Source: an uncultured Candidatus Saccharibacteria bacterium (GTDB lineage: Bacteria; Patescibacteriota; Dojkabacteria; J137). From it: a stretch of DNA of 64,000 nucleotides. The notes below the pieces were generated by a model. That model saw nothing but the letters and a program-made list of their open reading frames with translations. It was not told where the DNA came from and ran no database searches. The stretch spans positions 800,859 to 864,858 of the forward strand of contig OZ246402.1 in assembly GCA_965230975.1 (NCBI GenBank), written 5' to 3'. Both the position numbers and the translations under genes were made by a program. Below are positions 2,857 through 55,417 of this stretch, one piece after another. Numbering within the stretch: position 1 is the stretch's first letter; every line of letters starts with the position of its first letter.

Positions 2857-2998
2857 TAAGTATGATTTTCAAATTTAGACAATTAAATATAATATCATAG
2901 TTTTGTTTAATAAATTTAGCTAATGGACTTAATTTGCAAATTAGGCACTATATATCATTTATAGATTAAAACACCCTTAAAATGTTATAATATAAGGT

Positions 2999-21159: not shown

Positions 21160-21232
21160 GGTGGTTGTAGCTCAATGGTAGAGCACTCGCCTGTGGAGCG
21201 AGGTGTTGTGGGTTCGAGCCCCACCAACTACC
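21160..21232 (+). tRNA. tRNA-His (anticodon GUG) with encoded G-1
   Basis: G-1 at 21160 pairs with discriminator C73. Acceptor GTGGTTG/CAACTAC, D arm GCTC-AATGGTA-GAGC, anticodon arm CTCGC-CTGTGGA-GCGAG (GUG), T arm GTGGG-TTCGAGC-CCCAC. Confidence 0.85.
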
Positions 21233-31749: not shown

Positions 31750-33447
31750 TTATCTTAAATTTACTTCATTTGAAATAGCTTCTCCAACGCCACACCATCC
31801 TCCATATACATTTTGATCTTTTGCACAAACCCTAATGTAGGTGTAATCCTTAAATGGAGTAAGATCATATTCTCTTACGCTAGGTGCTACATCAGAATGA
31901 GTATAAGATGCATAAGGGATGCCGTTTGTAGGAATAGGGCTATATGAACCGATAATCTTAAACCCAGATAAATTAGTACCAACTACATTCCAAACTAGTT
32001 TATTTGCTGTGGTATCAACACTTAAGTTAATACTTTTTACAAATGGCTCAGAAGTTTTAGTTAAGTCTACCTGCTCTGAAATAGCTCCGCATTTAGCAAT
32101 ATAACCTCTTTCGTAAGAAATAGCGCAAATTCTTGCCTTACTAATACTAATATTAGAATTTTGTAGAGTGTAGTTTCTTTTAACTGGATCTGAAATAGTT
32201 ACTTGAGAATATGTAGCTGCAGGGAATCCACTATCTGGAATATCTGCATCTGAGAATGTAATTAAAAAACCGTCTTCCGCATATCCATTAGTTACCCAAG
32301 AAAGTTCATTAGATTCTTTATTAAACTTTAAATCAATATCTGAAACCAATGTACCTACATCTTCTAAGTAAAATGTAATTAGATTAGAAAAGGTATAACA
32401 ACTATCTGGAATATCTTTATTTACAAGACATGCAATTGCATTGTATGTACCAGGTCCATCAACTCTTGTAATTTTTCCATATTTATATGCTGTAGCAGTA
32501 GTAAATTCCCCATGAGATACAGTTGGATTATATCTTAAAATATCTGGTGACTTTGACCATATAATTTTTGTTGTATCATAACCAGTTGCATCTCCACTTA
32601 CAGTCCATGTTAAAACCCTATCTGATTCGTATTTCAAAGTAATTATTGGAGTGTTTCCATTAAATTTATTTGGATCACTTTTAATCCATTTAACGGTACT
32701 TACCATTGCATCACAAATAGATACATCTCCAGTACACTTCATTGATAAACCGAAAGAATAACCTCTATTTGAGCCATCTTGTAGTGGAACAAATACAGAA
32801 GGTTTTCCACAAGGTGCAGATATACTTACTCCTTGAAATTCGCAGGTAGTATTTAATAGATTTGCAAAATAATAATAAGTTCCATTTGATTCACCTCTAG
32901 TAAATTTTTGTCCTAGTTCTGTAGTAATACTTACTAAGCTATTATTTGTAACTGCTACCGGAGCTATAGGAACTCCAACACTATCCCACAGTATACTTAA
33001 TATATAGTCTTGGTTTTCGAACTCTACTGTATCATTTTGAGTTGATCCATTTACATATTTTTTGCTAGTATTTTCTGGGGTTTTTAGTTCAAAAGTAGCT
33101 GTATATAAATCAAAATTAGCCTTTGGCCAAGTTTGAATTGGTAATGCAATTATTTCGTTTGCATTATCTATAGAAGTTGGTCCAGAAACTACACCCTGAT
33201 TACTATAATCTACACTTTTAACAGTAATAACACTTGGAGTAGGCACTAAATCTTCAATAGACTTATCTAAGTCATTTGCAAGATTTGAATTATTGTTATT
33301 TAAAAGTTGATACGCAATGAATGCTCCAGCGGCAACTAATAATAATGCAACAACCGACATTATTAATGTTTTCTTATTAAGAAAGCGCATAAAATAATAA
33401 TAAAAATGTAATATACCAATATTAGTATTTTGTAGTGTACATTGCAA
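31750..33447 (-). CDS. membrane-anchored secreted hypothetical protein (565 aa)
   Basis: N-terminal TM (IMSVVALLLVAAGAFIAY). Ser/Thr/Asn-rich and Cys-containing extracellular region. Confidence 0.45.
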   Translation of the reverse strand: MQCTLQNTNIGILHFYYYFMRFLNKKTLIMSVVALLLVAAGAFIAYQLLNNNNSNLANDLDKSIEDLVPTPSVITVKSVDYSNQGVVSGPTSIDNANEIIALPIQTWPKANFDLYTATFELKTPENTSKKYVNGSTQNDTVEFENQDYILSILWDSVGVPIAPVAVTNNSLVSITTELGQKFTRGESNGTYYYFANLLNTTCEFQGVSISAPCGKPSVFVPLQDGSNRGYSFGLSMKCTGDVSICDAMVSTVKWIKSDPNKFNGNTPIITLKYESDRVLTWTVSGDATGYDTTKIIWSKSPDILRYNPTVSHGEFTTATAYKYGKITRVDGPGTYNAIACLVNKDIPDSCYTFSNLITFYLEDVGTLVSDIDLKFNKESNELSWVTNGYAEDGFLITFSDADIPDSGFPAATYSQVTISDPVKRNYTLQNSNISISKARICAISYERGYIAKCGAISEQVDLTKTSEPFVKSINLSVDTTANKLVWNVVGTNLSGFKIIGSYSPIPTNGIPYASYTHSDVAPSVREYDLTPFKDYTYIRVCAKDQNVYGGWCGVGEAISNEVNLR

Positions 33448-35267: not shown

Positions 35268-38200
35268 TTGAGAGTAACATTTAAATTAAAACAACTCTTA
35301 AATAGTGAAAAAATGCTATCAGTTAAGCATTCTTTTCTAACTTCATATAAAAATAATAAAAATAGATTCCACGTTATTATTGGTTTGGTTTTAGTTTTAA
35401 GCATTGCAGGATTAGTTTACGCAGCTACATCTACTAATAATATTGCTACCTCTTCTACAAATACAGCTACCACTGTTTCTACATTAAGAAGGGTAGTAAG
35501 AACAAGCGATGGAACATTACATGCATTTGTACAACTAGGTACAGAGACAATGACCTGTGGTGGAACACCAACAAATGGATTACTCTGGACTTATTCAACA
35601 GATAACGGGACAAATTGGACATGTGGTGGTCAGGTTTCTAACAATGTTAGTATTCTATTTCACGCTTCTGCCGTAGTAGATTCCTCAGATAATATTTATA
35701 TAGTATATTCACCTACAAATAGCGGAGCAAACAGCACTTACGATGCATATTATAGAAAACTAACAAAAGGGTCTGGGTCTACATGGACTTTAGAAAACGC
35801 ACAAACAGTATTAGATGCATCTGCATCTACTGGATTTAACTACGCAACCATAGAAATTGAAGGGACCGATAGACTCTGGGTTGCAGCAAGAAGGTTTGAT
35901 GGCACCAACTATCAAATATCAACTTACTATTCAGACGGGCTCACTACAAACCCTACCTGGGAAACATCTGAAAATGTATTAAGTGTAGCCGGTAATAGCG
36001 CCTCTTACCACATACCTGCAATGTTTAGATTCGGAAATAAAATAGGTATTGTTTATAACTCGCAACTGCCTACTGCAGTTATGAGATGGAGGTTTAGAGA
36101 AGATGGAGAATCTTTAACAAAATGGGCTTCTGAGACAATTATTAACACATTAACAGCTACTGGGCCAACATTTTCTGTAATTTCTGATAGTAATGCAAAT
36201 GCATATTTTGCTTTAAGTAGTACTACTAATGTTTTCTTTAACTATTGGAATGGTAGCGTTTGGTCTCAAAACGCAATAGTTAGTACGACTGCGCTTTCAA
36301 ACAGCTATGTATCTTTAACTACAAACGGTTCTAGCGTCAAAGTAATATATGGTGAATCTACAAATTTAGCTGCTGGTATTACAGGTCTAGGTATTTATAA
36401 ACTATCTTACAAAAATGGATATTTACCATTCTCCTCATCTGAATTTGATGTTACTGCTAGCCCTGTGGTTAGCTACCAAACCACATTTGATAAATATTGG
36501 AGTTACAATGGCACAACTTATACAAACGATACAACAGATGTTGCAAACGCAACTAGTGCAGATACACAAATGACATCTGGGATTGGGAGTATCGCATACT
36601 TTGGAAAACTTGAAAAATTTGACTCTATAGCTTGGGATATTTCTACAAGTGGAGTAACTGGTACTATAGTTTGGGAGTACTGGAACGGGAGTTCATGGAC
36701 AGCCTTAACTTTAAGAAACTCTTCTAGTCCTAACTTTACAGCAGATGGTTGGATAAACTTTGTAGACCCTGCAAACTGGGCAACAACTCAAGTTAATGCA
36801 GAAGGCACACCTTATTATTATGTTAGAGCTAGAACTAGTGTTGCATTTACAACTCAACCTGTAGGTGTTCAAATACTACCAATAACAGGCGTTTTTGGTG
36901 CTAACTTTATACAAAACAGTGTTAGTGGTAGTAGCTATGGTATTTGGACAGAAAACACTGCAAGCAGATTTGTTATTAAACAAGGATCTCTTAGCTATCC
37001 AGCAGTTACTGTAAATAATGCAACAAACACAAATGCAGTAAATAACTTGATAGGATACTCAACACTTGCTACAGCTACTCACCCAAGTACAATGAAAAAT
37101 ATATTACAAACATCTGACGGTACATTTCATGCCTTTATACAAGCTGGGAATAATGTTGCCTGTAATGACACGACTTATAATGGAGGGCTAGTATGGACAT
37201 ATTCTACAGATGAAGGAGTAAATTGGGATTGTGGTGCAGAACTTATGAGCGAAATTGTTAATGTATCTTATGCTTCTGCAGTAAAAGATAGTTCTGATAA
37301 TATTTATGTAGTTTATTCTACTTTAAATAATGCAGGTGGAGTTACAAATGACACCTACTATACAAAGCTAACAAAAGGAGTTGGATCAACCTGGAGCGTA
37401 GGCACTCCAGACTTAGTTTTAGATGCAAGTGGAACAACAGCATATACATACTCAACAGTTGAGATAGAAAATAATACAAGATTATGGCTTGCCACAAGGT
37501 ACTTTGACGGGGTTTATTATCAAATCAATACTTATTATTCATCAGACCTTTCGGGTGCTCCAAACTGGAGTGTTTCGAAAGCCCCATTAACAGCTCTTAC
37601 CGCAACTAGCACATATCTGTACCCTGCAATCGTTAGGTTTGGAAGTAATATTGGTGTAGCTTATAATGCTCAAACTAATAATCAAAGGTGGCGAGTTAGA
37701 TCTGATTCTGACCCGTTGAGCTCTTGGGGTACTGAAAACATTGTAAGCACAGAAGCAGTAGCTAGCCCAAGATTCTCAATTATATCTGATGGAAGTGATA
37801 ATGTTTACTATGGGTCCTTGGTAACATGTTCAATTTATACAACCTTTTGGAACGGTAGAACATGGGCTCCAACAACTACAGTAATAAACAACAACTGTAC
37901 TCAGGTAGCATCTGGCACTTACTTTAGCTTGTCTACTGATGGTACAAATTTAAGGTTATTTTATGGAGAGCCATTAAGTACTAGTACTGGAATTCCCCAA
38001 CATAGACTAGTTTATAGAACAGGTGTACCTCCATATAGTGCAAACAGCTTTGATTTAACTGCAACACAGGTAAATACAATGCATTCAACATTTACTAAGT
38101 ATTGGAGTTATGTTTCAAGTGTTTACCTAAACGACACTACAGATGCCGCAAGTGTGACAAGCGCAGATACTCAAATGCTAACAAACGCAGGAGATATTGC

Positions 38201-41200
38201 ATTTTTTGGATCCAGTTCAAAATTTGATACTGTTGCATGGGATGTTTCAACATTAGGAACTGTTGGATCCGTAATTTGGGAATATTGGAATGGCAGTGCT
38301 TGGGTAGAACTAACAGATTTTACATCAGTATCTAACCCATCTTTTTACAATGATGGATATATTAACTTTGTTACGCCAGTAAATTGGGCTACAACACAAG
38401 TTAATGCAGAAGGCACACCTTACTATTATGTTAGGGCTAGAGTAACAAGGTCATTTAGTGTAGCACCAGTAGGCATTCAGTTTACAACAATGCCATTAGT
38501 TTCTTGGGCAACTGCACTCCCGAATACAAATGCTAATAAAGTTGGTGCTATGTGGACTGAAAACTCAGTTTCATCTATGCCTATAAAATTTCAAAATATT
38601 AGCTTGGGTAGCAATTACACTAATTATAACGCTACGCAAACAGATGTTATTCCAACTTTAGGTTATTCAGCTAATGTCACTTCGCTGGGGCCAACAACTA
38701 TGGAAAGCTATGTTAAAACTTCAGATGGAACATACCACTCATTTGTGCAAGCTGGAAACAAGCAATTTTGTAACGATGCATCATCTACAGTAAACAATGT
38801 TGGTTTAATGTGGGTTTATTCTACCAATGGGTCGGATTGGAATTGTGGAGGTCAATTATCCGGTGATGTTACTAATTTTATGTATGCTTCCGCTACAACC
38901 GACTCTGCAGGAAACATTTATGTAGTTTATTCAGTAACCGCAAATGGAGCAAACATCGCATATAGCACTTATTATAGAAAACTAACAAAAGGGGTTGGTG
39001 CAACATGGACAATAGGAAATGCAAGTCAGGTTCTAAATGCTTCTGCAGGTGGTATTGCTTATTCATACTCTGTTATTAAAGCAGAATCAGATTCAAGATT
39101 GTGGTTAGCAACGCGTTACTTTGATGGTACAAACTATCAAATATCTGCTTACTATACTGATACTTTAGTTGATGATCCTACATGGAACCTTTCAACAATG
39201 AGTCTAAGTGTTGCGACTCCAAGCACAACCGATTTCTTTCCATCAATTGTAAAGTTTGGAAACAATATTGGAATAATTTATGCATCCCAATTCCCTGCAT
39301 CTTATCAAATGTGGAGATACAGAAGTAATTCTCAAGACCCTACTGTTTGGTCATCTCAAATGGTAGTTAATACAGAAAACTTATCTGTACCTGCTTATTC
39401 CACAGTGTCTGATAATGCAGGAAATGTTTATACAGTTTCAGTTAATGGTGCTAATGTTGTATTTAACTATTGGAATGGTAACGTTTGGTCACCCTCTGTA
39501 AACTTATCAACAACCGCCTCTACTGCTTATGCAGGTATTATTACAGATGGTTACAACGTTTGGGTTAACTATTTAGATACAACTGGGCTTATCTCATCTG
39601 GACTTGGATTAAGAAAATTTAGCTACAGAAAAGGAATACCTCCTTACACAGCTACAGAGTGGGAGGCTGCTACAAATTTGGTGACTAATCATGGATTTTT
39701 TGATAAATACTGGAGTTACTTTAGCTCTGTTTACTTAAATGACACAACCGATGTTACTTCTGTTGCAACAGCAGATACTCAAATGCTAAGAAATATAGGA
39801 GATATTGCATATTTTGGGAAATTAGAAAAATTTGATGCAGTATCTTGGGTTTTAAGCACAGCAGGTGTTGGGGGGAATGTTGTTTGGGAATACTATAATG
39901 GGAGTGTTTGGGCACCAATAGAGGATTTTGAGCATAACTTGAATCCTAATTTTATTGGTGCAACAACTGGAATTATATCTTTCAGTCCTGCAAGTGATTG
40001 GCAAACGACCACGGTTAACAGCGAACCCACACCTTATTACTATGTTAGAGCAAGGGTAATTGCAAATTACTCAACAACCCCTGTTGCATCACAAATTGTT
40101 ACAATTCCAAACTTAAATAGCTCTGCATTGCTACCTACTTTAGATGGAAACAATATGTCAGGGCTTTGGACAGAAAACTCGGTAGCTCCTATTCGAATAA
40201 GAAAATACGATATTACATTATCTACAGAAACACCTAACACAGCATCTGCATCTGATTTAATGCCTACCTTAAACTCGGCAACTTGGTATTCTTCAACAAA
40301 CCTAACTAATCAATCATCTACTCAAAGAAGTATTGTAAAAACATCTGATGGCACTATCCATTCATTTGTTTACACTGCTAACTCGCCAGCTTGTGGTGGC
40401 AACTCAACAAGCCAGGCAAATTCAGGTGGGTTAGTTTGGATGACCTCAAGTGATGAAGGTGTAACTTGGGATTGTAAATCTACTTTGTGGTCTGACCCGA
40501 CAATGGGGTACTACGCATCTGCAACAGTAGACAGCAACGACAATATTTATGTTGTTTATTCTCAAGCTGCAAATGGTGGGAGTGTTAATTACGATATTTA
40601 TTATAGAATGATTACAAAAACTGGACCTGGGACTTGGAGCATGGAACCTCAACAAATACTACTTGATTCAATTACTGCTAATACTGGGTACACTTATGCA
40701 ACAATAGAGGTAGAAGGTTCTAATAGACTTTGGGTAGCATTTAGAAATTATAATAATCCAAACTATCAAGTCTCTGTATATTATTCTAGCGCACTAACTT
40801 CTGAACCAGTTTGGACACTTTCAAGCTTAGCATTAGAAAGTGCAGGCACATCTACAAGTTACCATTATCCAACCATTGTACGTTATGGAAGTAATATAGG
40901 AGTTATTTATAGCAATGAAATTGGAGGTGTTTCTACCAGATGGAGATCTAGAGCCGACACAGATGGTTTAACAACATGGGGAACAGAAGCAACAATTATG
41001 GCATCTGCTTCAACAGGGCCATTATTTTCTGCAGTTGGTAGTGATGCTGGTGAAATCTATTTAAGTGTTGGCTCTGCTGCAACTGTTTACTTTACATCAT
41101 GGAATGGAAGTTCTTGGTCAAGTAGAGCAACATTATCTTCAACTGCTATTACAAATGGATTTACAAATGTAAGTATGGTTGGAACAACTGCATATGTTTA

Positions 41201-44200
41201 CTATACCAATGCAAGTGGTTTGAGTGCCGGATTACCAGGTAATAGAAAATTAGTATATAAAAGAGGTGTTGCCCCATACTTAGATGCAAACTTTGATGTA
41301 TCAGAAACAAGTATTGTTTCTTACCACTCACTATTTGATAAAGTTTGGAGTTATGTATCTTCAGTTTACGCAAACGAAACTACAGATGCTTCAAATACAA
41401 CAAGTGCAGATACTCAAATGGTAAGCCAAATAGGGGATATTATATATTTAGGTAAAACTTCTAAATTTGATAATATCTCTTGGGACTTATCTACATTGGG
41501 TACAAATGGAATAATAAGATGGGAGTATTATAATGGTGCTTCTTGGAAAGCAATAAATAAATATTTAGGTGTATTAACTCCATCATTCACAGGAGATGGT
41601 GCAATTTCATTTGTTCCGGCTCAAGACTGGGCACAAACAACAATTAACGGAGAGGGAACATCTTATTATTACGTAAGAGGGGTAGTAACAAGAGCATTTA
41701 GCGTTGTACCAATTGGAGTTCAGTTTGCAAGTATTCCATTACTGTCTCAATTTACAAGCATTGCTAAAGCTAACAACATTTACTACTCATGGACAGAAAA
41801 CTCTGCATCTAACTACAGAGTTAGATTTTCAGCATACATATTTAATGTTGCTCCAAACACACCAACCTCATTGGGCGCTAGTGCAGTAGTAGATGGATCT
41901 CCAACAAAAAACAATCAACCCGAATTTATATTTACAACAAGTGATCTTAACTTAGGAGATACTTCAACATATACTATTCAAATTGATAACGATAGCGATT
42001 TTTCATCTCCAGTAGTAGATTACACTTCTGCATTTACATTAAATGGAGTTAGAGGCTTTGCAGTAGGGCAAGCAGTTGGTAGTGGAATTTACACTACAGG
42101 TTCGCAAGGGCAAACATTGACAGACGGAGATTATTACTGGAGAGTTAAAGCAAGTGACTTAGCAGGTTTAGAATCCGGGTTTGCAGTAGCAAACAGCGGA
42201 AGTGTTGCGTTTAAAATAGATACTGCAAACCCGGCAACAAATGCAAGCAGTATTTTAATGTTAAAAACCGCTGGTGGACCTGGAGTTAACTCTAATGGTT
42301 GGACAAATAACGCATCTCCTTATTTTTCTTGGACACCTGGTGTAGATAACGTAGGTGGTTCTGGAATTTTTGGTTATTGTGTTTATTTAGGAACAGATTC
42401 TAATGGTAATCCAGAAACTAGCAAAGGCTTGTTAGGAACATCACCTGCAACTTTGGTAGATTCAACTTGTCAATTTATAACTACAACTACATCAATTGAT
42501 TTTACCAACGCTAACTTAAAAGGTGGAACATGGCTTACAACATCTTCTAGCCCATATTATATAAACATTAAAGCTATAGATATTGTTGGTAATATATATA
42601 CAACTTCAAGTGCGCAATTTCAGTTTAGGTTTGATAACGTTGCACCAACTAACGTAGCTTTCATAAGCACCGCTGGTGGAACATTTAATAATGTAGCAGA
42701 TATGAGCTTTTCGTGGCCAACAGCAGGTTTAAACACATCATCAGATGCAACATCTGGAGTATTGGGTTGGCAATATGCAATTAATATAACAAGTGGTAGT
42801 TGGCAAGGCACAACAGATAGTACAGAACTAGACGAGAGATATATACCAACAAGTGATAGCAATTACAGCTTAACAAATGTTCAAGATGCAGGTTCTATTG
42901 TGACTGGTAGCAATACAATTTACTTTAGAACAATTGACCAGGCGGGGAATTATTCATCTGAGGGCACAGTTAGAACAGGTGTATTGCAGTTTGGTGGAGC
43001 TGCACCAATGTTCCCACCACTTTCTCAAGTAACAGTAACACCATCCGTGGGAGTATCAAATAATTACGAATTATCTTGGCCAGAAGCAATGTCTGGATCT
43101 GGTGGAGATATTTCAAATTATTACTATATGATAAATATAACGCCACCAACGGTTTTAAGTACTATAACAACAAACCCTGCAACATTTATAAACAACAACT
43201 TAAGTTTAGGAGTTACTGCAAGATCTTTACCAAACGTAAATAGAGGAACGAATACCGTATATGTTGTAGCAGTAGACGAAGATGGACATTATTCACCATC
43301 TAATTATATTACCGGAACATTTGAATTGAATTCAACAGAGCCGGACAATCCAACACAACTTACAGCATCAGATGCATCTATAAAATCTGAAAACAGATGG
43401 ATGGTTACATTAACATGGATTAAACCAGCATACGAAGGTGCAGGAAACTTAACATACTTGGTACATAGATCTTTAGATGGAGTAAGCTTTAGCTTGGTAG
43501 GTACAACTACAAGTTTGTCTTATGTAGATAACCCAGATGAAAGTAGACTATATTATTACAAAGTTTATGCAAAAGATGGAGCTAACCAAACATCGTCCGG
43601 TACAAATGCTGTTTCTGAAACGCCAACAGGTCGGTGGACAGTACCTCCTACACTAGACAATGAGCCAGAAGTTACAAATATTACTACTAAGAAAGCAAAA
43701 ATATCTTGGACAACATCAAGAAAAGCAGATTCTAAAGTAGCTTATGGTACAGAAAGTGGAGTTTACTTCCCGGTTGAACCTAGTACATCTGATTTAACCC
43801 CGGCACACGAAATAAATTTAAATGGTTTACAACCAAGTACTCAATACTATTATATTGCAAGATGGACAGACGAAGATGGTAATACAGGTTCGTCAACAGA
43901 ATATAGCTTTGTAACACAACCTGCCCCAAGTGTTAAAGATGTAGTTGCAAGTAACGTTGGTTTAACATCTGCTATATTAAGATACACAACCTTAGGTGCA
44001 AGCAAAGTAAGGATATTTTATGGAACAACAACATCTTTTGGAGGTTTGAAAGAGGTTTCTACTTCTACTAGCGAAACAGTTCAAACTACAGAAATAACAG
44101 GATTGTTAGATGGTACAAAATACTATTATAGAATAGATACTTTAGATGAAGAATCAGCTCAATACGAAGGAACAATTTTAGACTTTACAACACTACCTAG

Positions 44201-44876
44201 ACCAAAAATTAATAATGTTAGAGTACAGCAAGTTAGAAATACCGCACAGTCAACTGTTTTAATAAGCTGGCAAACAAATACGGAAGTATCTTCTATAGTT
44301 ACATACTATCCGGAAAATCAACCAGGACTTTCTACAGATGAAGTAAATGTCACCTTAACAAAAGGGGATCACAGTATGATAATTAGAGGTTTGCTACCTC
44401 AAACAAATTACAATATTATAGTTAAGGGAAGAGACAGAATGGGAAACGAAGCAGTATCTGATGTTCAAAGATTAACAACTGCAACAGATACTAGACCGCC
44501 GGTATTAAGCAACATTAAAATTGAAGGCGCAATTTCAAAGTTATCAAGTAGTTCTGATAATACTCAAGTTGCTCAAATAGTGGTTAGTTGGAATACCGAT
44601 GAGCCAGCTACATCTCAAGTTGAGTTTGGAGAAGGCACAGGTACAACTTATTCTCAAAGAACACAAGAAGATACTAATTTAACAGTAAATCATTTGGTGG
44701 TAATAACAGGTCTTACACCTTCAAAGGTTTACCACTTAAGAATACTAGCTAAAGATAAAGCAGAGAATTTAGGTAGATCTGTAGATACAGTTACAATTAC
44801 GCCAAAAGGAACGGATAATGCATTGGATTTGGTTTTATCTAGTTTGCAACAAACCTTTGGATTTTTAAATAATTAA
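35268..44876 (+). CDS. giant secreted surface protein (3202 aa): signal anchor, 4 tandem ~540-aa BNR/Asp-box beta-propeller-like modules, then 4 fibronectin-III-like domains
   Basis: N-terminal TM/signal (HVIIGLVLVLSIAGLVYA). Each module begins TSDGT(L/F/Y/I)H(A/S)F(V/I)Q and contains one Asp-box: YSTDNGTNWTCGG, YSTDEGVNWDCGA, YSTNGSDWNCGG, SSDEGVTWDCKS. C-terminal purple-acid-phosphatase-N-type Fn3 domains (KISWTTSRKADSKVAYGTESG..., SKVRIFYGTTTSFG...). Uninterrupted 9.6-kb ORF. Confidence 0.8.
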   Translation: MRVTFKLKQLLNSEKMLSVKHSFLTSYKNNKNRFHVIIGLVLVLSIAGLVYAATSTNNIATSSTNTATTVSTLRRVVRTSDGTLHAFVQLGTETMTCGGTPTNGLLWTYSTDNGTNWTCGGQVSNNVSILFHASAVVDSSDNIYIVYSPTNSGANSTYDAYYRKLTKGSGSTWTLENAQTVLDASASTGFNYATIEIEGTDRLWVAARRFDGTNYQISTYYSDGLTTNPTWETSENVLSVAGNSASYHIPAMFRFGNKIGIVYNSQLPTAVMRWRFREDGESLTKWASETIINTLTATGPTFSVISDSNANAYFALSSTTNVFFNYWNGSVWSQNAIVSTTALSNSYVSLTTNGSSVKVIYGESTNLAAGITGLGIYKLSYKNGYLPFSSSEFDVTASPVVSYQTTFDKYWSYNGTTYTNDTTDVANATSADTQMTSGIGSIAYFGKLEKFDSIAWDISTSGVTGTIVWEYWNGSSWTALTLRNSSSPNFTADGWINFVDPANWATTQVNAEGTPYYYVRARTSVAFTTQPVGVQILPITGVFGANFIQNSVSGSSYGIWTENTASRFVIKQGSLSYPAVTVNNATNTNAVNNLIGYSTLATATHPSTMKNILQTSDGTFHAFIQAGNNVACNDTTYNGGLVWTYSTDEGVNWDCGAELMSEIVNVSYASAVKDSSDNIYVVYSTLNNAGGVTNDTYYTKLTKGVGSTWSVGTPDLVLDASGTTAYTYSTVEIENNTRLWLATRYFDGVYYQINTYYSSDLSGAPNWSVSKAPLTALTATSTYLYPAIVRFGSNIGVAYNAQTNNQRWRVRSDSDPLSSWGTENIVSTEAVASPRFSIISDGSDNVYYGSLVTCSIYTTFWNGRTWAPTTTVINNNCTQVASGTYFSLSTDGTNLRLFYGEPLSTSTGIPQHRLVYRTGVPPYSANSFDLTATQVNTMHSTFTKYWSYVSSVYLNDTTDAASVTSADTQMLTNAGDIAFFGSSSKFDTVAWDVSTLGTVGSVIWEYWNGSAWVELTDFTSVSNPSFYNDGYINFVTPVNWATTQVNAEGTPYYYVRARVTRSFSVAPVGIQFTTMPLVSWATALPNTNANKVGAMWTENSVSSMPIKFQNISLGSNYTNYNATQTDVIPTLGYSANVTSLGPTTMESYVKTSDGTYHSFVQAGNKQFCNDASSTVNNVGLMWVYSTNGSDWNCGGQLSGDVTNFMYASATTDSAGNIYVVYSVTANGANIAYSTYYRKLTKGVGATWTIGNASQVLNASAGGIAYSYSVIKAESDSRLWLATRYFDGTNYQISAYYTDTLVDDPTWNLSTMSLSVATPSTTDFFPSIVKFGNNIGIIYASQFPASYQMWRYRSNSQDPTVWSSQMVVNTENLSVPAYSTVSDNAGNVYTVSVNGANVVFNYWNGNVWSPSVNLSTTASTAYAGIITDGYNVWVNYLDTTGLISSGLGLRKFSYRKGIPPYTATEWEAATNLVTNHGFFDKYWSYFSSVYLNDTTDVTSVATADTQMLRNIGDIAYFGKLEKFDAVSWVLSTAGVGGNVVWEYYNGSVWAPIEDFEHNLNPNFIGATTGIISFSPASDWQTTTVNSEPTPYYYVRARVIANYSTTPVASQIVTIPNLNSSALLPTLDGNNMSGLWTENSVAPIRIRKYDITLSTETPNTASASDLMPTLNSATWYSSTNLTNQSSTQRSIVKTSDGTIHSFVYTANSPACGGNSTSQANSGGLVWMTSSDEGVTWDCKSTLWSDPTMGYYASATVDSNDNIYVVYSQAANGGSVNYDIYYRMITKTGPGTWSMEPQQILLDSITANTGYTYATIEVEGSNRLWVAFRNYNNPNYQVSVYYSSALTSEPVWTLSSLALESAGTSTSYHYPTIVRYGSNIGVIYSNEIGGVSTRWRSRADTDGLTTWGTEATIMASASTGPLFSAVGSDAGEIYLSVGSAATVYFTSWNGSSWSSRATLSSTAITNGFTNVSMVGTTAYVYYTNASGLSAGLPGNRKLVYKRGVAPYLDANFDVSETSIVSYHSLFDKVWSYVSSVYANETTDASNTTSADTQMVSQIGDIIYLGKTSKFDNISWDLSTLGTNGIIRWEYYNGASWKAINKYLGVLTPSFTGDGAISFVPAQDWAQTTINGEGTSYYYVRGVVTRAFSVVPIGVQFASIPLLSQFTSIAKANNIYYSWTENSASNYRVRFSAYIFNVAPNTPTSLGASAVVDGSPTKNNQPEFIFTTSDLNLGDTSTYTIQIDNDSDFSSPVVDYTSAFTLNGVRGFAVGQAVGSGIYTTGSQGQTLTDGDYYWRVKASDLAGLESGFAVANSGSVAFKIDTANPATNASSILMLKTAGGPGVNSNGWTNNASPYFSWTPGVDNVGGSGIFGYCVYLGTDSNGNPETSKGLLGTSPATLVDSTCQFITTTTSIDFTNANLKGGTWLTTSSSPYYINIKAIDIVGNIYTTSSAQFQFRFDNVAPTNVAFISTAGGTFNNVADMSFSWPTAGLNTSSDATSGVLGWQYAINITSGSWQGTTDSTELDERYIPTSDSNYSLTNVQDAGSIVTGSNTIYFRTIDQAGNYSSEGTVRTGVLQFGGAAPMFPPLSQVTVTPSVGVSNNYELSWPEAMSGSGGDISNYYYMINITPPTVLSTITTNPATFINNNLSLGVTARSLPNVNRGTNTVYVVAVDEDGHYSPSNYITGTFELNSTEPDNPTQLTASDASIKSENRWMVTLTWIKPAYEGAGNLTYLVHRSLDGVSFSLVGTTTSLSYVDNPDESRLYYYKVYAKDGANQTSSGTNAVSETPTGRWTVPPTLDNEPEVTNITTKKAKISWTTSRKADSKVAYGTESGVYFPVEPSTSDLTPAHEINLNGLQPSTQYYYIARWTDEDGNTGSSTEYSFVTQPAPSVKDVVASNVGLTSAILRYTTLGASKVRIFYGTTTSFGGLKEVSTSTSETVQTTEITGLLDGTKYYYRIDTLDEESAQYEGTILDFTTLPRPKINNVRVQQVRNTAQSTVLISWQTNTEVSSIVTYYPENQPGLSTDEVNVTLTKGDHSMIIRGLLPQTNYNIIVKGRDRMGNEAVSDVQRLTTATDTRPPVLSNIKIEGAISKLSSSSDNTQVAQIVVSWNTDEPATSQVEFGEGTGTTYSQRTQEDTNLTVNHLVVITGLTPSKVYHLRILAKDKAENLGRSVDTVTITPKGTDNALDLVLSSLQQTFGFLNN
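35490..41960 (+). repeat. intragenic tandem repeat, 4 x ~1.6 kb (modules of the giant protein)
   Basis: Modules start near nt 35490, 37104, 38718 and 40338. Recurrent blocks include NDTTD(V/A)..(A/V)TSADTQM...(I/V)WEYWNGS.W and TTQVNAEGTPYYYVRAR. The copies are diverged, so this is ancient duplication. Confidence 0.75.
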
Positions 44877-44877
44877 A

Positions 44878-47838
44878 ATGGGTGACCCAATAATAAAAAT
44901 ACAAAACATTAATAAAGTATTCACAGTTGGTGATCAAGATTTGCATATTTTAAAAGATATATCTGTAGATATTGAGAGAGACGATTTCGCAATCATTTTG
45001 GGGCCATCAGGATGCGGAAAATCCACTTTATTACATACAATTATTGGATTAGAAGAGCCTACATCTGGTAGTTTAATATTTAGTGGGGTAGATATTTACA
45101 AAGGTAAAACTGATGATGATAGAAGTGTTTTTAGAAAAACACATATTGGAATGATTTACCAACAACCAAACTGGGTTAAAGCCCTACATGTTTTAGATAA
45201 TGTAGCGTTACCTTTAGAAATGCTTGGAGAAGATAAAGAATCTGCCAGAAAAAAAGCATTGTCTGCATTAGGATCTGTATCTATGGATGAGTGGGCATAT
45301 CACTTACCAACATCTCTATCTTCTGGTCAACAACAAAGAATTGCACTTGCCCGGGCTTTAATTACAGACCCAGAAGTAATAATTGCAGATGAGCCAACAG
45401 GAAACCTTGACTACGAAGCTGGACAAGCATTAATGAATCTTTTAAAGATTTACAACACTCACTTTAAGAAAACAGTATTAATGGTAACTCACGACTTGGA
45501 ATACCTATCTTTTGCCAAAACTGCCATTAAACTTTTTGATGGTAAATTAGTTGGTGTTTATCAAGATGGAGATAAAGATGAACTGCAACATAATACTAAG
45601 ACTAAAAAACTACCTGAAATGGCACTACCAGATATTGCAGTAAATACTGCAGCTATTGCTAAGGCTCAAGATGAAAAATCACAAGCAAATGGTGTTGGGA
45701 AACTTAACTCAAGTAAAGTTGGACAGGATGACAAGCAAGATTTAGCAGACTTTAATAAAGGTTTCTTTCAAAAGCAATCTTTAGAAAAAGTTGCTACAAG
45801 TGGACCTAAAATTAAGCCAAAAACTCCTTTAGCACAAAAGATTATAAGGATTATAAAAAACATACCTTCTAATATAAAAGGTGCCTTAATACTTAGTAAA
45901 CAGATCTTTGTAATAGTATTACTTTTAACTATTTACTTAATAAAGCTAATCATAGCTACAGTAGTAAAAAGATTAATTCCAGGTTTCATTATAAATGTTA
46001 TTGGAAAGCCATTAATGCAAATAGATCTATTAGTAACAAAATGGATTGATCCAAGCTTTTCAAAAACAATTCCGAAAATTGAATTAATAAGTATTGCAGT
46101 TAAGAACATGCTTGCAAAAAAAACTCGAACTGCAGTTACAATTGGTGGTATGGCTGTAGGTATTGCTGCAATTGTATTTTTGGTTTCACTGGGTTATGGA
46201 TTACAAGATGTAGTAATTAGTAGAGTAGCCCGGTTAGACGAGATGAAACAAGCAGACATATCTCCTCAAACAGGAGGTAATGTAAGTTTAAATGACGAAA
46301 CAATTGCTAACTTTTCTAGAATACCTAACGTATCAATGTTAATGCCGTTAATTTCCGTGGTAGGAAAAATCTCTTACCAAAACTCTGTTACAGATGTTGC
46401 AACATATGGTGTTACATCTGATTATTTAAAACAGTCTGCTGTAAAACCATCTTTCGGAACAATCTTTGAAAGCAATGAAACAGTTGTAAGTGTTAATAAA
46501 AGTGATTTAGTTGATCAAGGCAAGGTTGCAGGACTAAGTACAGAAAATGCAATTGTAAAAGTTGGTGAAAAAATTTCAGATGTTACGTTTAACATAACAA
46601 CTAATGTTTGGGCAACAGTACGCTCTGGCCCTGACTTAAAATCAGAGATTTTAGGTTTTACTAAAAGAGTAGAGGGTAATTTAACAGGCGAAGAGGTTTG
46701 GGGAGTAGAAGACAATTGGGTTAGAACAAAATATTCATTATGGAAAGAACAATCATGCTCAACTATTTATAATTTAGACTGCGCAGATGGGAAGTATTTA
46801 AAAATAAAAGACTCTCTTGGAACTCAAATACAGCAAAGTGGATATGTTTATAATGCTGATTTACAAATTTCTAATCGAAAATTAAAACCAGATAATTCAA
46901 CCGCCAATGTGTTGGGGCTATCAACAGATAGCAATGTCAAAGTTAATGGTCAAGTATTAGGTGTTTCAGATGAGCAATGGGTAGAACTACCATCCGAATC
47001 TTCAACTTCATCTTTGGAGCAAGTTACAACCATAGAGCTTTCACCTCTTGCAAAAAAAGAAGCTGTTGTAAATGTAGCAATGCTTAAAGTACTGGGAATT
47101 GAACCAAGCGAAGCAGTTGGGAAATCTTTTGCAGTATCTTATGTAGTAGTTGGTAATTTATTAAATCAAGATAACGAAAAAGTCGAATCTGCAATTTCAG
47201 ATTACAAGATTATTGGTGTTGTTCCAGAAGATAAAACTCCTTACTTTTATGTACCATTTATTGATTTAAGATCTTTAGGTATTGCTAGTTATTCTCAGTT
47301 AAAATTAGTTGTTAATGACTCTGCAAATTTAGCTGGTGTTAGAAACCAAGTAGAGAGCTTAGGTTATAATACTGTCTCTGTTTCCGATACAGTGGCTCAA
47401 ATAGAATCCTTATTTTCAACATTAAGAACGTTACTCGCATTGGTAGGGTCTGTTGCATTAGCTGTTGCATCTTTAGGAATGTTTAATACATTAACGGTAT
47501 CTTTATTAGAAAGAACTAGAGAGGTAGGGTTTTTAAGAGCTATAGGTATGACATCTTCAGAAGTTCAAGAGCTATTCTTAACAGAGTCCTTAACAATGAT
47601 GTTCTTTGGTGGGTTTGGTGGAATTTTTGCAGGGTTAGTATTTGGGAAACTAGCTAGTTTAATAGTTTCTTTGATAGCCGCCAGAGATAATGCTGGATTC
47701 TTAGATATATCAAGACTGCCTTTATCATTCTTATTAATAGTATCTGCCTTAGCATTATTGGTTGGTATTGCAACTGGAATTTACCCAGCAAGAAGAGCAA
47801 AAAAGATATCTGCACTAAATGCCTTAAGATACGAATAA
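44878..47838 (+). CDS. MacB-type ABC transporter, fused ATPase-FtsX permease (986 aa)
   Basis: N-terminal NBD (Walker A GPSGCGKSTLLH, signature LSSGQQQRIALARAL, Walker B IIADEPTGNLD). Then a TM helix, a ~400-aa extracytoplasmic domain and C-terminal FtsX TMs ending ARRAKKISALNALRYE. Starts 2 nt after the giant protein's stop. Confidence 0.85.
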   Translation: MGDPIIKIQNINKVFTVGDQDLHILKDISVDIERDDFAIILGPSGCGKSTLLHTIIGLEEPTSGSLIFSGVDIYKGKTDDDRSVFRKTHIGMIYQQPNWVKALHVLDNVALPLEMLGEDKESARKKALSALGSVSMDEWAYHLPTSLSSGQQQRIALARALITDPEVIIADEPTGNLDYEAGQALMNLLKIYNTHFKKTVLMVTHDLEYLSFAKTAIKLFDGKLVGVYQDGDKDELQHNTKTKKLPEMALPDIAVNTAAIAKAQDEKSQANGVGKLNSSKVGQDDKQDLADFNKGFFQKQSLEKVATSGPKIKPKTPLAQKIIRIIKNIPSNIKGALILSKQIFVIVLLLTIYLIKLIIATVVKRLIPGFIINVIGKPLMQIDLLVTKWIDPSFSKTIPKIELISIAVKNMLAKKTRTAVTIGGMAVGIAAIVFLVSLGYGLQDVVISRVARLDEMKQADISPQTGGNVSLNDETIANFSRIPNVSMLMPLISVVGKISYQNSVTDVATYGVTSDYLKQSAVKPSFGTIFESNETVVSVNKSDLVDQGKVAGLSTENAIVKVGEKISDVTFNITTNVWATVRSGPDLKSEILGFTKRVEGNLTGEEVWGVEDNWVRTKYSLWKEQSCSTIYNLDCADGKYLKIKDSLGTQIQQSGYVYNADLQISNRKLKPDNSTANVLGLSTDSNVKVNGQVLGVSDEQWVELPSESSTSSLEQVTTIELSPLAKKEAVVNVAMLKVLGIEPSEAVGKSFAVSYVVVGNLLNQDNEKVESAISDYKIIGVVPEDKTPYFYVPFIDLRSLGIASYSQLKLVVNDSANLAGVRNQVESLGYNTVSVSDTVAQIESLFSTLRTLLALVGSVALAVASLGMFNTLTVSLLERTREVGFLRAIGMTSSEVQELFLTESLTMMFFGGFGGIFAGLVFGKLASLIVSLIAARDNAGFLDISRLPLSFLLIVSALALLVGIATGIYPARRAKKISALNALRYE

Positions 47839-47843
47839 TATTT

Positions 47844-48578
47844 TTACTTAAATGAATTTTCTATAGCATTAGAAATTAATGTATTTATCTTTTCTATTTG
47901 GCTAACAGCTACTTTTCTATGCATATAAACTCCTTTAAAATCTTTAACTTCATAAGTATCTATTATTGTTTTTACAGTAGAAGAATAATCTGAAAATATT
48001 AAGTTTACCAAATCAACAGAAAAATTTGAGTTTAAAGAGTTATAAAAGCTAGCAAGTTTTGCCGGGAAAGAGGTTATTTTGCTTAATTGTTCTCTAACCT
48101 TATTTGTATCTCCACTTTTTTTAGCATTTGTATAATCAATAAAAGTTTTAATATAGTCATTCCATATATTTGAAAATTGAATTTTTTGTTCTTCTGTATA
48201 GTATTTTGCAAAATATAAAGAAAGCTTTTGCGTATTGGTATTTAATGATTCTTGAATTGCATCTTTTTCTAAAGTATCAAAATATACAGCATTAATATAG
48301 TTAAATAACAAGTTTGTTTGATCTATACCATCAATAATAAAAGTTTTATCTGTAACATTTGCTACACTTAATTCTTGTTGATAACTAGTTAATAACTCAT
48401 TAACATAAAGCTGTTTTTTAACTTCTGAAACTATTAATATTGTTAAAATAGATACAACTATCAGCGAAATAAATATTAAAACTTGTTTCTTTTTTATATT
48501 TTTGAACCATGCTTGCAATGGATTTTTTAAATCTTTTGAAGATCTTTTTATTGTCATAATTAATAATAGTAAATACAA
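47844..48578 (-). CDS. membrane-anchored hypothetical protein
   Basis: 244 aa with one N-terminal TM (VLIFISLIVVSILTILIV). Confidence 0.45.
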   Translation of the reverse strand: MYLLLLIMTIKRSSKDLKNPLQAWFKNIKKKQVLIFISLIVVSILTILIVSEVKKQLYVNELLTSYQQELSVANVTDKTFIIDGIDQTNLLFNYINAVYFDTLEKDAIQESLNTNTQKLSLYFAKYYTEEQKIQFSNIWNDYIKTFIDYTNAKKSGDTNKVREQLSKITSFPAKLASFYNSLNSNFSVDLVNLIFSDYSSTVKTIIDTYEVKDFKGVYMHRKVAVSQIEKINTLISNAIENSFK

Positions 48579-55190: not shown

Positions 55191-55417
55191 AATATAGGAG
55201 ATAAAGAATAAATTTATACAACAGTTTTATATAAAGTATATCACTGTTTTCTTTAAATAAAAGCCCTATAACTCAAATTGTAAAAAAATTTACCAAATAA
55301 GTAATTCCATTTTAATCTGTTTATGGTATCATTCATATAACATAATCCCACAGATGTTTATACAATTTACAAATAATTAAATTTATTTGTTTTTTTATTT
55401 TTATTGACAATTAAATT

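Follow-up and report, generated by a model that had tools for sequence, protein, structure and literature searches.

A giant surface protein with predicted sialidase-like propeller modules is linked to a MacB-type ABC protein gene in one clade of CPR bacteria

Introduction

MacB-type ABC transporters are mechanotransducers that lack a transmembrane substrate channel and whose substrates are extracytoplasmic. Type VII ABC systems are known for lipoprotein extraction, hydrolase activation, and periplasmic efflux. Some systems of the MacB family secrete proteins from the periplasm, as in the cases of Aat and dispersin and of MacAB and enterotoxin STII.

A lifestyle attached to host cells is assumed for CPR bacteria. 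To our knowledge, almost no large CPR surface protein has an assigned fold or partner. The protein described herein resembles giant repeat adhesins (LapA, SiiE, and the Ebh type) and other large CPR surface proteins in its huge size, Ig/Fn3 stalk, predicted distal binding domains, and predicted extracellular location.

Two groups of solved structures are close to the repeated module of this protein. GH33 sialidases with carbohydrate-binding modules (Micromonospora viridifaciens 1EUT/2BZD and the Pseudomonas pseudaminidase 2W38) share the six-bladed propeller. The podophage nozzle (LME-1 orf18, 9EFK chain M; T7 gp12-like) is the sole solved protein with sequence-level homology to the second part of the module. 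Chain M of 9EFK was taken to be the nozzle from its six copies and the description in the paper (PMC12407071). A literature search on links between giant proteins and MacB in CPR found nothing relevant, and a preprint on giant genes of Omnitrophota described a T2SS-like context, not MacB.

We herein describe a giant surface protein gene, a MacB-type ABC protein gene, and a gene for a small membrane protein that lie together in a 64,000-nt stretch of DNA (hereafter the window), and compare them with the systems above.

Results and Discussion

Organization of the locus

The giant reading frame at 35268..44876 (+) is present in the ORF list of the window. The original prediction gave a length of 3202 aa, which holds for an ORF starting at TTG 35268; however, the gene callers and the sequence favor ATG 35313, and the gene (35313..44876, +) then encodes 3187 aa. 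The four repeated modules that had been predicted were recovered by end-to-end alignment, with pairwise identities of 40-47% and 148 invariant columns, far above chance, and their bounds in the protein are aa 45-585, 586-1120, 1121-1660, and 1661-2205. The motifs NDTTD, [ST]ADTQM, WEY[WY]NG, and YYYVR each occur once per module with a period of ~535 aa. Module 1 (35454..36992, +), predicted to be a six-bladed propeller with an inserted jelly-roll, was delimited by N and C HMM matches and the module alignment and carries the Asp-box STDNGTNW. Module 2 (37062..38600, +) is the one that was modelled, and modules 3 (38670..40214, +) and 4 (40293..41840, +) were located by motifs, the module alignment, and HMM matches. 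The claim of one Asp-box per module needs a small correction: the strict S-x-D-x-G-x-x-W form is found in modules 1, 2, and 4, while that of module 3 is degenerate (STN-GSDW).

The modules are followed by approximately four Ig-like beta-sandwich units (41880..43328, +), in which the motif [YF]xxxAxDxxGN is found and which fill aa 2190-2672. These units gave a weak Big_13 match and sub-threshold partial matches to the Fn3 HMM, with no confident Pfam match. Five Fn3 domains lie downstream (43335..44807, +; aa ~2675-2772, 2778-2870, 2871-2962, 2963-3058, and 3062-3165). Four had been predicted; Pfam identified four fn3/Pur_ac_phosph_N stretches and a local HMM added the fifth (aa ~2675-2772). The modules would thereby sit on a stalk of approximately nine Ig/Fn3 domains. 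The protein ends in a conserved tail, ...TDNALDLVLSSLQQTFGFLNN (44808..44873, +), which falls in its best-conserved part: among 4 orthologues, 68% of the columns in the last ~90 aa are invariant versus 27-52% elsewhere. The FGFL tail was found only in orthologues (P0016 and P0025), both of which are linked to ABC genes, whereas TM+KKRR or other tails terminate the proteins of unlinked relatives. The FGFL tail may form an amphipathic helix for docking or anchoring.

The next gene was said to start 2 nt after the giant stop codon. The adjacency was confirmed, but the gap is 1 nt (stop TAA at 44874-44876, ATG at 44878). As predicted, this gene encodes a single-chain MacB-like protein (986 aa), with ABC_tran at aa 25-174, MacB_PCD from aa 418, and FtsX at aa 856-978. 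Its nucleotide-binding domain (NBD; aa 1-240, 44878..45597, +) matched PF00005 (E=4e-31); the best NCBIfam matches were MacB/LolD/FtsE and the best PDB matches were MacB (5gko/5lil/5nik). Next come a linker of low complexity and, as judged by hydropathy, an extra hydrophobic segment at aa 345-375 that may be a helical hairpin and TM1 at aa 420-438 (45598..46191, +); the split permeases of L006, L008, and L009 carry the extra segment at their N-termini. The extracytoplasmic domain, predicted at ~400 aa, spans ~410 aa between TM1 and TM2 (aa 439-850, 46192..47427, +) and comprises a MacB_PCD (PF12704) core in two stretches plus ~250 aa without a family assignment; it is 35-47% identical in orthologues. 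The FtsX-type TM2-TM4 bundle and the stop codon complete the gene (47428..47838, +; PF02687 E=2.7e-15 and hydropathy). An SH3b-like insert considered for the extracytoplasmic domain was rejected for want of Pfam support, the sole match being weak (Glyco_hydro_2_N2, E=0.02).

The ABC protein therefore has the features of the MacB/LolCDE/FtsEX type (type VII), namely, an NBD, a four-TM FtsX bundle, and an extracytoplasmic core between TM1 and TM2, and MacB structures were its best PDB matches, in two matched stretches. It also shares the fusion of NBD and transmembrane domain with Gram-negative MacB. In contrast to these systems, its extracytoplasmic domain is double the size that is usual for them, ~250 aa of it being unassigned, and the extra hydrophobic segment precedes TM1. 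Among the seven linked loci described below, the NBD and permease are fused in the window alone, and orthologues have split genes. The fused form recurs in four cluster members of at least 90% identity from independent sources and is therefore not an assembly artefact. A second MacB-type system is encoded in the window at 938-2868 (-).

The product of the third gene (47844..48557, -) is a bitopic membrane protein of 237 aa, with its TM at aa 27-45 and an ectodomain of ~190 aa that is mostly non-hydrophobic. It belongs to no known family, and neither a hydrolase domain nor a Pfam match was found in it. The ectodomain looks helical when its sequence is judged by eye. In L006, L007, and L008, the loci for which the region upstream of the giant gene was covered, homologues with 23-26% identity are encoded directly before it. 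In a comparison with FtsEX-hydrolase systems of the PcsB/EnvC/CwlO type, we noted an M23 gene 2.5 kb downstream in the window, a homologue of which was not detected in L006-L009. The window ABC gene differs from known type VII systems in being linked to genes for a giant secreted protein and a small, probably helical membrane protein.

Gene linkage among relatives

The coupling of the giant gene to a MacB-type gene, which the original prediction had taken as a sign of partnership, was kept in every close orthologue examined (7/7 loci). The linkage expected in relatives thus holds for the seven close-orthologue loci, but not for distant family members. A MacB-type NBD and permease are encoded downstream of the giant gene in the window, L006, L007, L008, L009, L020, and L023, and these seven loci are those that encode four-module or FGFL-tail orthologues. 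Identities to the window ABC protein were 46-59% for the NBD, 35-47% for the PCD, and 56-66% for FtsX; the L023 PCD was 56% identical over an 85-aa fragment. In L008, L009, and L023, the giant and ABC genes have abutting or overlapping reading frames, compared with the 1-nt gap in the window, and a gene pair for a CHASE4-PAS histidine kinase and a receiver lies between them in L006 and L007. No ABC genes were found near most family members (L002, L003-5, L010, L013, L024, and L025), and L021 encodes a 37-43%-identical permease without an adjoining giant gene or NBD. The linkage is confined to one clade with at least 46% NBD identity. A Gottesmanbacteria locus (L017) considered as an eighth linked case was excluded; its ABC pair is orthologous to the generic pair of the window at 938-2868.

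This distribution allows for the giant protein and the MacB-type system being functionally unrelated, with a generic transporter (envelope, detoxification, or peptide handling) whose adjacency is the inherited gene order of one Daviesbacteria-like clade. Such an explanation fits the restriction of the linkage to close orthologues, the distant members without nearby ABC genes, the unlinked L021 permease, and the kinase and receiver genes interposed in L006 and L007; the transporter may be regulated by this two-component system in some loci. MacB-type systems are also common housekeeping systems, and the window has its second one (938-2868, -). However, outside the giant, ABC, and helical-protein genes, no flanking gene is common to the window and L006-L009, which indicates that general synteny has decayed while the trio has persisted, even with a changed internal order. 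Moreover, four loci have abutting or overlapping reading frames where the giant gene meets the ABC genes, and the FGFL tail and the ABC genes occur together. The kinase is also of the CHASE4-PAS type and has a stand-alone receiver, unlike Bce-type systems, in which an intramembrane sensor is paired with a DNA-binding regulator. We consider inherited adjacency of unrelated genes to be a serious but rather unlikely explanation.

Propeller fold of the repeated module

The original prediction held that the module lies beyond known domains, and searches of Pfam, NCBIfam, and single sequences against the PDB agreed in giving no match; Pfam, NCBIfam, and PHROGs gave none for whole modules even at E<=1. 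A four-module profile also gave no match to PDB sequences, and deeper alignments alone succeeded. The module family comprises ~90 strong cluster representatives, mostly from Microgenomates (Daviesbacteria).

The AF2 model of module 2 (pLDDT 88.5, pTM 0.87) has 24 strands in a 6x4 pattern. In module numbering, the blades span 12-319, the jelly-roll ~336-480, and the returning strands (WTEN) ~491-512. Its best Foldseek matches were bacterial and trypanosomal sialidases, with E down to 6e-11; the TM-scores to sialidases were 0.36-0.43, and lectin and other GH propellers scored similarly. The suspected sialidase-like propeller was thus found in the N-terminal part, which according to the model is a six-bladed propeller of the sialidase superfamily with one Asp-box. 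At the sequence level, a deep module profile matched ~45 PDB chains of sialidase/BNR proteins by way of the Asp-box blade (E~1e-5), and the Pfam BNR and GH33 models and NCBIfam were silent on the modules. Apart from the propeller itself, the likeness to GH33 sialidases includes an Asp-box placed in the loop that joins strands 3 and 4, the blade-1 motif GTL.a..., and a beta-sandwich joined to the propeller. Unlike these enzymes, the module has a single Asp-box per propeller and a beta-sandwich inside the last blade instead of an appended one, occurs in four tandem copies, and has a TM-score of only ~0.4.

The modules could be active exo-sialidases or related glycosidases, in which case the giant protein would be a tandem enzyme array scavenging host glycans. 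The closest structures are indeed GH33 sialidases and a pseudaminidase, the profile matches to sialidases reach the E-value given above, and the combination of a propeller with a beta-sandwich is reminiscent of the Micromonospora sialidase, which carries a galactose-binding module. Conservation above 80% was also seen for several Arg and Asp residues among the 69 modules aligned; however, they appear mainly in the A-B and C-D loops, the presumed structural face, off the active-site face. The catalytic Arg triad that the original prediction had named as a check was not borne out by this alignment, and the likeness is one of fold only: the sialidase D-x-R after GTLLa is Q-x-G in the module family, conservation of the Arg near the FRIP-like position reaches only 67%, and no conserved Tyr/Glu was found in the 69 modules, including the blade-6 Tyr, the position of which was taken from DSSP. 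The silence of the BNR and GH33 models, the limitation of sequence similarity to the Asp-box blade motif, the low TM-scores (0.36-0.43), and the comparable scores of lectin and other GH propellers also speak against catalysis. Since the FRIP and D-x-R motifs and the catalytic residues are not conserved, a binding role appears more likely from the sequences than catalysis, and we regard an enzyme array as improbable.

Signal peptide and export

A Sec-type signal peptide was assigned to the N-terminus of the giant protein (35313..35423, +) from sequence and hydropathy, with a basic n-region, the h-region HVIIGLVLVLSIAGLV, and a putative cleavage site between VYA and AT. The corresponding context, [VI]WA followed by A[TI]S, is kept in orthologues, and we infer that the signal peptide is cleaved. 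The sole hydrophobic segment of the protein is aa 21-39, and it has neither a transmembrane nor a covalent anchor. The product would be a Sec-exported extracellular protein of ~350 kDa. It differs from adhesins of the LapA/RTX type in having a Sec signal instead of a type I C-terminal signal and in the absence of an RTX match, and from giant repeat adhesins in lacking an LPXTG motif or TM anchor and in having modules from an unannotated family. Its partner ABC protein is of the MacB type, not the HlyB type of type I-secreted adhesins.

The original prediction suggested that the MacB-type protein is a dedicated exporter carrying the giant protein across the cytoplasmic membrane. The tight gene coupling and the MacB-family systems that secrete periplasmic proteins (Aat/dispersin and MacAB/STII) are in line with this suggestion. 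However, the giant protein has its own canonical Sec-type signal, and the MacB fold offers no transmembrane substrate pathway. Furthermore, the cassette has no gene for a membrane-fusion or outer-membrane partner, such as the MacA/TolC-type partners of MacAB-TolC: Pfam detected no MacA/HlyD or TolC family in the scanned ORFs (28649-59316 and six others) or in the called genes of L006. The cell that carries the cassette is presumably a monoderm CPR bacterium. Dedicated export is very unlikely as the mechanism, and the MacB-type protein probably acts on the giant protein outside the cell.

Jelly-roll insert and its phage relatives

A jelly-roll of ~140 aa is inserted in the last propeller blade and, modelled alone with AlphaFold, reached pLDDT 92.5. 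The insertion topology is illustrated by P0154, an N-only member in which the W-x-EN strands come straight after blade 6. The model and Foldseek are compatible with the carbohydrate-binding unit that had been proposed, the C-terminal part of the module being a jelly-roll that resembles CBM and galactose-binding-like domains. The novelty claimed for the NDTTD...YYYVRAR block was not upheld; it is a widespread domain common to phage tail and CIS baseplate proteins. The jelly-roll profile matched Legionella phage LME-1 orf18 (9efk_M) at E=1.4e-15, and Foldseek ranked 9efk_M first (TM 0.78, RMSD 2.3 A), followed by the CIS baseplate structures 9gtp and 7b5h and then CBM32/CBM6. The CBM32-like matches had TM-scores of 0.4-0.5 and E~1e-2, and the domain itself gave no Pfam F5_F8_type_C match. 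The whole module also matched the LME-1 nozzle chain (Foldseek E=3e-10), which is consistent with both being propellers bearing a jelly-roll.

The jelly-roll alone was found in 34 viral contigs, scanned with P0007 and A1 as queries, and in hundreds of other proteins. The viral matches essentially cover the insert region only; 3/34 reach slightly upstream and 0/34 span the propeller. PHROGs assigned no informative family to ten viral jelly-roll proteins. Compared with a T7-like nozzle, the module shows domain homology and an analogous insert topology, but the portal/adaptor gene context is absent. The nozzle forms part of the virion as a hexamer and has tip and platform domains, whereas the module is a tandem unit in a secreted cellular protein without a phage context. 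The homology of the jelly-roll to LME-1 orf18 and CIS baseplate proteins and its frequency in viral contigs might suggest that a phage tail or contractile injection system left this locus as a remnant, but there is next to no chance of this, given neighbors that are housekeeping genes rather than portal, capsid, sheath, tube, or baseplate genes, viral matches none of which covers the propeller, the signal peptide and Fn3 stalk of the giant protein, and a module family that is chromosomal in Microgenomates.

Proposed role of the cassette

We propose that the three conserved genes form a functional chromosomal cassette of a Daviesbacteria-like CPR bacterium (Microgenomates), in which a Sec-exported giant binding protein is acted on extracellularly by a MacB-type mechanotransducer and a bitopic protein; we consider the chances of this proposal to be evenly balanced. 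The job of the giant protein is probably multivalent binding to glycans or cell surfaces, for example in attaching to host cells or a substrate. After crossing the membrane through Sec, it would present its four modules as diverged, positionally orthologous binding units at the N-terminal (distal) end. Its conserved C-terminal end would be in physical contact with the extracytoplasmic domain of the ABC protein and/or the helical partner, and would be held, positioned, tensioned, or released by them. ATP hydrolysis in the cytoplasm would be relayed outward, as in LolCDE, FtsEX, or MacAB. Extracytoplasmic anchoring or actuation by the MacB-type protein is the candidate role that we favor.

We also speculate, tentatively and in the knowledge that it is rather unlikely, that the ABC protein and helical partner form an ATP-driven anchor or actuator that holds, tensions, or releases a non-covalently attached giant adhesin through its conserved C-terminal Fn3 domains and FGFL tail, and that the module was exapted from, or gave rise to, the propeller-plus-insert unit of podophage nozzles.

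The present study assigns, with high confidence, the fold of a sialidase-like propeller bearing a phage-type jelly-roll insert to a family of modules that had no annotation, and it provides a sequence-level bridge between a domain of cellular surface proteins and the decoration domains of phage nozzles and CIS baseplates. The compact conserved three-gene cassette also leads to a testable hypothesis, in which a giant adhesin is serviced by a mechanotransducer of the MacB type. Should the coupling not be physical, the giant protein would be a well-characterized but ordinary CPR surface protein encoded beside a transporter. If it is physical, the type VII ABC repertoire would extend to the anchoring or actuation of adhesins. 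An anchor or actuator of this kind would represent a new role for type VII mechanotransducers and may allow CPR bacteria to regulate their attachment to hosts.

The giant surface protein

The 9.6-kb ORF was confirmed. The size of 3202 aa in the original prediction corresponds to the mechanical ORF start at TTG 35268; however, the public gene call starts at ATG 35313, which gives a 3187-aa protein (35313-44876, +) with the N-terminus MLSVKHSFLTSYKNNKNRFHVIIGLVLVLSIAGLVYA followed by ATS.... Motif searches and a four-way alignment resolved four tandem units of ~535 aa with full-length identities of 40-47% and 148 invariant columns. The Asp-box expected once per module was strict in modules 1, 2, and 4, but degenerate in module 3. 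The four Fn3 domains expected after the modules were detected by Pfam, but are preceded by ~4 Ig-like units lacking a confident Pfam match, and a local HMM added a fifth Fn3 domain. Hydropathy revealed one hydrophobic segment, the N-terminal signal. The modules are positionally orthologous across genomes, with the diagonal being highest in 11 of 12 comparisons. The GC content of the giant gene (36001-44000) is 37% vs ~31% in its flanks, which might reflect a biased amino-acid composition.

Fold of the repeated module

As anticipated, the module lies outside recognised domains: the whole module was not recognised by Pfam, NCBIfam, PHROG, or single-profile PDB searches. An exhaustive profile search collected 2169 cluster representatives at E<=1e-3 (92 at E<=1e-30). 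With local HMMs, the module divides into an N part and a C part; ~60 large proteins contain 1-4 copies of both, with N preceding C. The AlphaFold2 model of module 2, built from a 30-sequence alignment, had a pLDDT of 88.5 and a pTM of 0.87. Between residues 12 and 319, the model has 24 strands arranged as 6x4, which makes a six-bladed propeller; the Asp-box is in the loop joining strands 3 and 4 of blade 1. The top Foldseek matches in the PDB were bacterial and trypanosomal sialidases and a pseudaminidase (E 6e-11 to 1e-8), closely followed by seven-bladed Photorhabdus lectins and GH32/43 propellers; TM-scores were modest (0.36-0.43), and chain M of the Legionella phage LME-1 was match no. 3 for the whole module. 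A deeper profile gave sequence-level matches to ~45 sialidase/BNR chains (E from 7e-6), confined to the Asp-box blade. We conclude that the module is, by fold, a member of the sialidase superfamily, as had been proposed.

The proposed sialidase likeness did not extend to the catalytic signature, and alignments suggest that the family does not belong to the catalytic sialidases. The D-x-R that follows GTLLa in sialidases is Q-x-G in the module family. Among 69 modules, an Arg at the FRIP-like position was only 67% conserved, and no conserved Tyr/Glu was found at the expected place of the nucleophile pair. Strong conservation in these modules was instead observed for Trp residues, the Cys32-Cys55 pair, and Asp/Arg residues apparently located in the A-B and C-D loops.

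The inserted jelly-roll domain

The NDTTD...ADTQM...WEYWNG...YYYVRAR block, originally regarded as part of one possibly novel repeat unit, is a separate beta-sandwich of ~140 aa. Hundreds of other proteins contain the C part on its own or repeated, and the domain modelled by itself from 39 diverse sequences reached a pLDDT of 92.5. Its profile matched one solved structure at the sequence level, namely, residues 518-634 of chain M in the LME-1 portal-tail complex (E=1.4e-15). Chain M is 'orf18' (818 aa, six copies) and, since the LME-1 tail is T7-like with a hexameric nozzle (PMC12407071), is most likely the nozzle protein. Foldseek aligned the jelly-roll with this chain at a TM-score of 0.78, an RMSD of 2.3 A, and 23% identity. 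The next matches were baseplate proteins of Streptomyces and Anabaena contractile injection systems, followed more weakly by CBM32/CBM6/GH29-C jelly-rolls. In IMG/VR, the jelly-roll was present in 34 viral contigs, nearly all of which matched the insert region only and a few slightly further upstream; the propeller was absent from all 34. The viral carrier proteins are 700-1100 aa in length and have no PHROG annotation.

In members with the N part only, such as P0154, the 'W-x-EN...[IV]R' strands immediately follow strand 3 of blade 6; hence, the jelly-roll is inserted within the propeller unit and not appended to it. The 516-aa member P0004 has its jelly-roll elsewhere in the propeller, following approximately blade 3, and P0088 (4023 aa) contains at least 17 partial jelly-roll repeats; therefore, the insert domain is evolutionarily mobile.

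The MacB-type system and its linkage to the giant gene

The downstream gene (44878-47838, +) encodes, as predicted, a single-polypeptide MacB-like transporter: a 986-aa chain with ABC_tran, MacB_PCD, and FtsX (Pfam) and ~410 extracytoplasmic residues between TM1 and TM2. Its best NCBIfam match is MacB, and its closest solved structures are MacB 5GKO, 5LIL, and 5NIK. The NBD-permease fusion is genuine, because four nearly identical members of the cluster, which come from different sources and include a 1.19-Mb NCBI contig, contain the same chain. A second, split MacB/FtsX-type pair at 938-2868 (-), a 413-aa permease and a 227-aa NBD, shares only 33-36% identity with the giant-linked system.

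A closely related MacB-type system lies downstream of the giant orthologue in 7/7 loci. In the window, the four-module giant gene stops at 44874-44876 and the fused ABC gene starts 1 nt later, at ATG 44878. Four modules are also encoded at L008, where the giant reading frame abuts that of the ABC system, split into NBD and permease genes, and at L009, where the giant reading frame is interrupted once and nearly abuts the likewise split ABC genes. At L006, the four-module gene is followed by a CHASE4-PAS kinase, a stand-alone receiver, and then the ABC genes; L007, also with four modules, has the same insertion and then the NBD, where the locus sequence ends. L020 covers only the C-terminal end of the giant gene, followed by the NBD and then the permease, and at L023 the NBD overlaps the stop of a giant gene (P0025) bearing the conserved FGFL tail. 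Identities to the window protein are 46-59% for the NBD, 56-66% for FtsX, and 35-47% over most of the ectodomain (56% over an 85-aa fragment in L023). The predicted coupling thus holds among close orthologues, but the single-polypeptide form does not extend to L008 and L009, no ABC genes were within reach of the distant family members at L002, L003-5, L010, L013, L024, and L025, and the L021 permease (37-43% identical) is without giant-gene linkage. Gottesmanbacteria locus L017 was rejected as a linked case; its pair is orthologous (40-53% identity) to the generic MacB-like pair at 938-2868.

The kinase and receiver genes (L006 19599-22140; L007 17775-20309) comprise a histidine kinase and a receiver with no output domain, and are absent from the window. 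At L023, an FtsX-like segment (1792-2148, -; 61% identity) lies on the opposite strand and overlaps the N-terminus of the P0025 gene call, which looks unusual; chimeric assembly or a local inversion may account for this.

A reciprocal all-ORF comparison revealed one further gene common to the window and the linked loci, a 237-aa ORF at 47844-48557 (-). Its product falls into no assigned family and combines an N-terminal TM segment with an ectodomain judged by eye to be helical. Homologues lie directly upstream of the giant gene in L006, L007, and L008. Since only these three genes are shared and the other flanks are unrelated, the trio behaves as a cassette with a changeable internal order. 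The main rival explanation is that giant/ABC adjacency represents clade-level synteny without functional meaning, which we regard as unlikely, although a substantial possibility.

Across four orthologues, invariant columns account for 27-44% of the modules, 42-52% of the Ig/Fn3 stalk, and 68% of the last ~90 residues, which end in ...TDNAL.LV..LQQ.FGFL. This FGFL tail was found only in orthologues, all of which are ABC-linked; relatives without ABC genes have C-terminal TM+KKRR anchors or other short amphipathic helices. The pattern fits fast-evolving distal binding modules and a conserved proximal protein-protein or membrane interface. Many relatives (P0032, P0033, P0042, P0044, P0049, P0050, P0054, P0057, P0059, and P0063) end in a [GS][FW][FW]..I[IV]..[IF]K..F amphipathic helix and others in TM+KKRR; both resemble alternative signals for the C-terminal anchoring or sorting of CPR surface proteins.

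Genomic surroundings and hosts

The window has a GC content of 31% and housekeeping neighbours (cyclophilin, AHSA1, epimerase, M23 peptidase, GT2, a CBM5_12 protein, and tRNAs), and no phage genes were found in it. Region 51288-59316 encodes a 1301-aa Big_3/PKD surface protein (minus strand) and then a 766-aa chitin-synthase-like GT2, whose gene is overlapped by that of a 534-aa protein with two CBM5_12 chitin-binding modules; the latter two may form a pair for the synthesis and binding of a polysaccharide. ORFs 21231-24152(-), 28649-30637(+), 31753-33447(-), and 60711-62744(-) (974, 663, 565, and 678 aa) matched no Pfam family at E<=1e-3.

Propeller matches occur in Candidatus Daviesbacteria and Gottesmanbacteria MAGs and in MAGs with implausible labels, from which we infer that the window derives from the Microgenomates (CPR). 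Contigs L007, L010, L011, L012, L014, L016, and L018 are labelled Pseudomonadales, Gammaproteobacteria, Nanoarchaeia, Dehalococcoidales, or Weeksellaceae; for contigs with a CPR-type gene, these labels probably reflect MAG mis-binning or mislabelling. In three independent metagenomes (L003-L005), the single-module member P0003 lies amid the toxin-antitoxin genes HicAB, HEPN/MNT, AbiEii, and PIN.

Possible function

Both MacB-type systems and large CPR surface proteins on stalks of Ig/Fn3 domains are familiar. Four results appear to be new: the fold assigned to this unannotated family of modules; the sequence-level connection between its insert and domains from a phage nozzle and from contractile injection system baseplates; the topology of a jelly-roll inserted inside a propeller; and the conserved cassette of giant, MacB-type, and helical-protein genes, together with the C-terminal tail specific to linked giants.

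The dedicated export envisaged in the original prediction is unlikely because MacB-fold transporters are known to lack a transmembrane substrate path and the 350-kDa protein carries a Sec signal. The giant protein would be exported by Sec and cleaved between VYA and AT. At fold level, a stalk of ~nine domains displays four propeller/jelly-roll units, which probably function in binding. Based on linkage, the conservation gradient, and knowledge of the transporter family, we propose that the C-terminal end engages the enlarged MacB-type ectodomain and/or the helical partner, and that ATP-driven mechanotransmission anchors, tensions, or releases the giant protein, analogous to lipoprotein extraction by LolCDE and the activation of PcsB/EnvC by FtsEX. 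The MacB-type system would then be an ATP-driven anchor or actuator of an adhesin, a reading that we consider doubtful and offer only tentatively.
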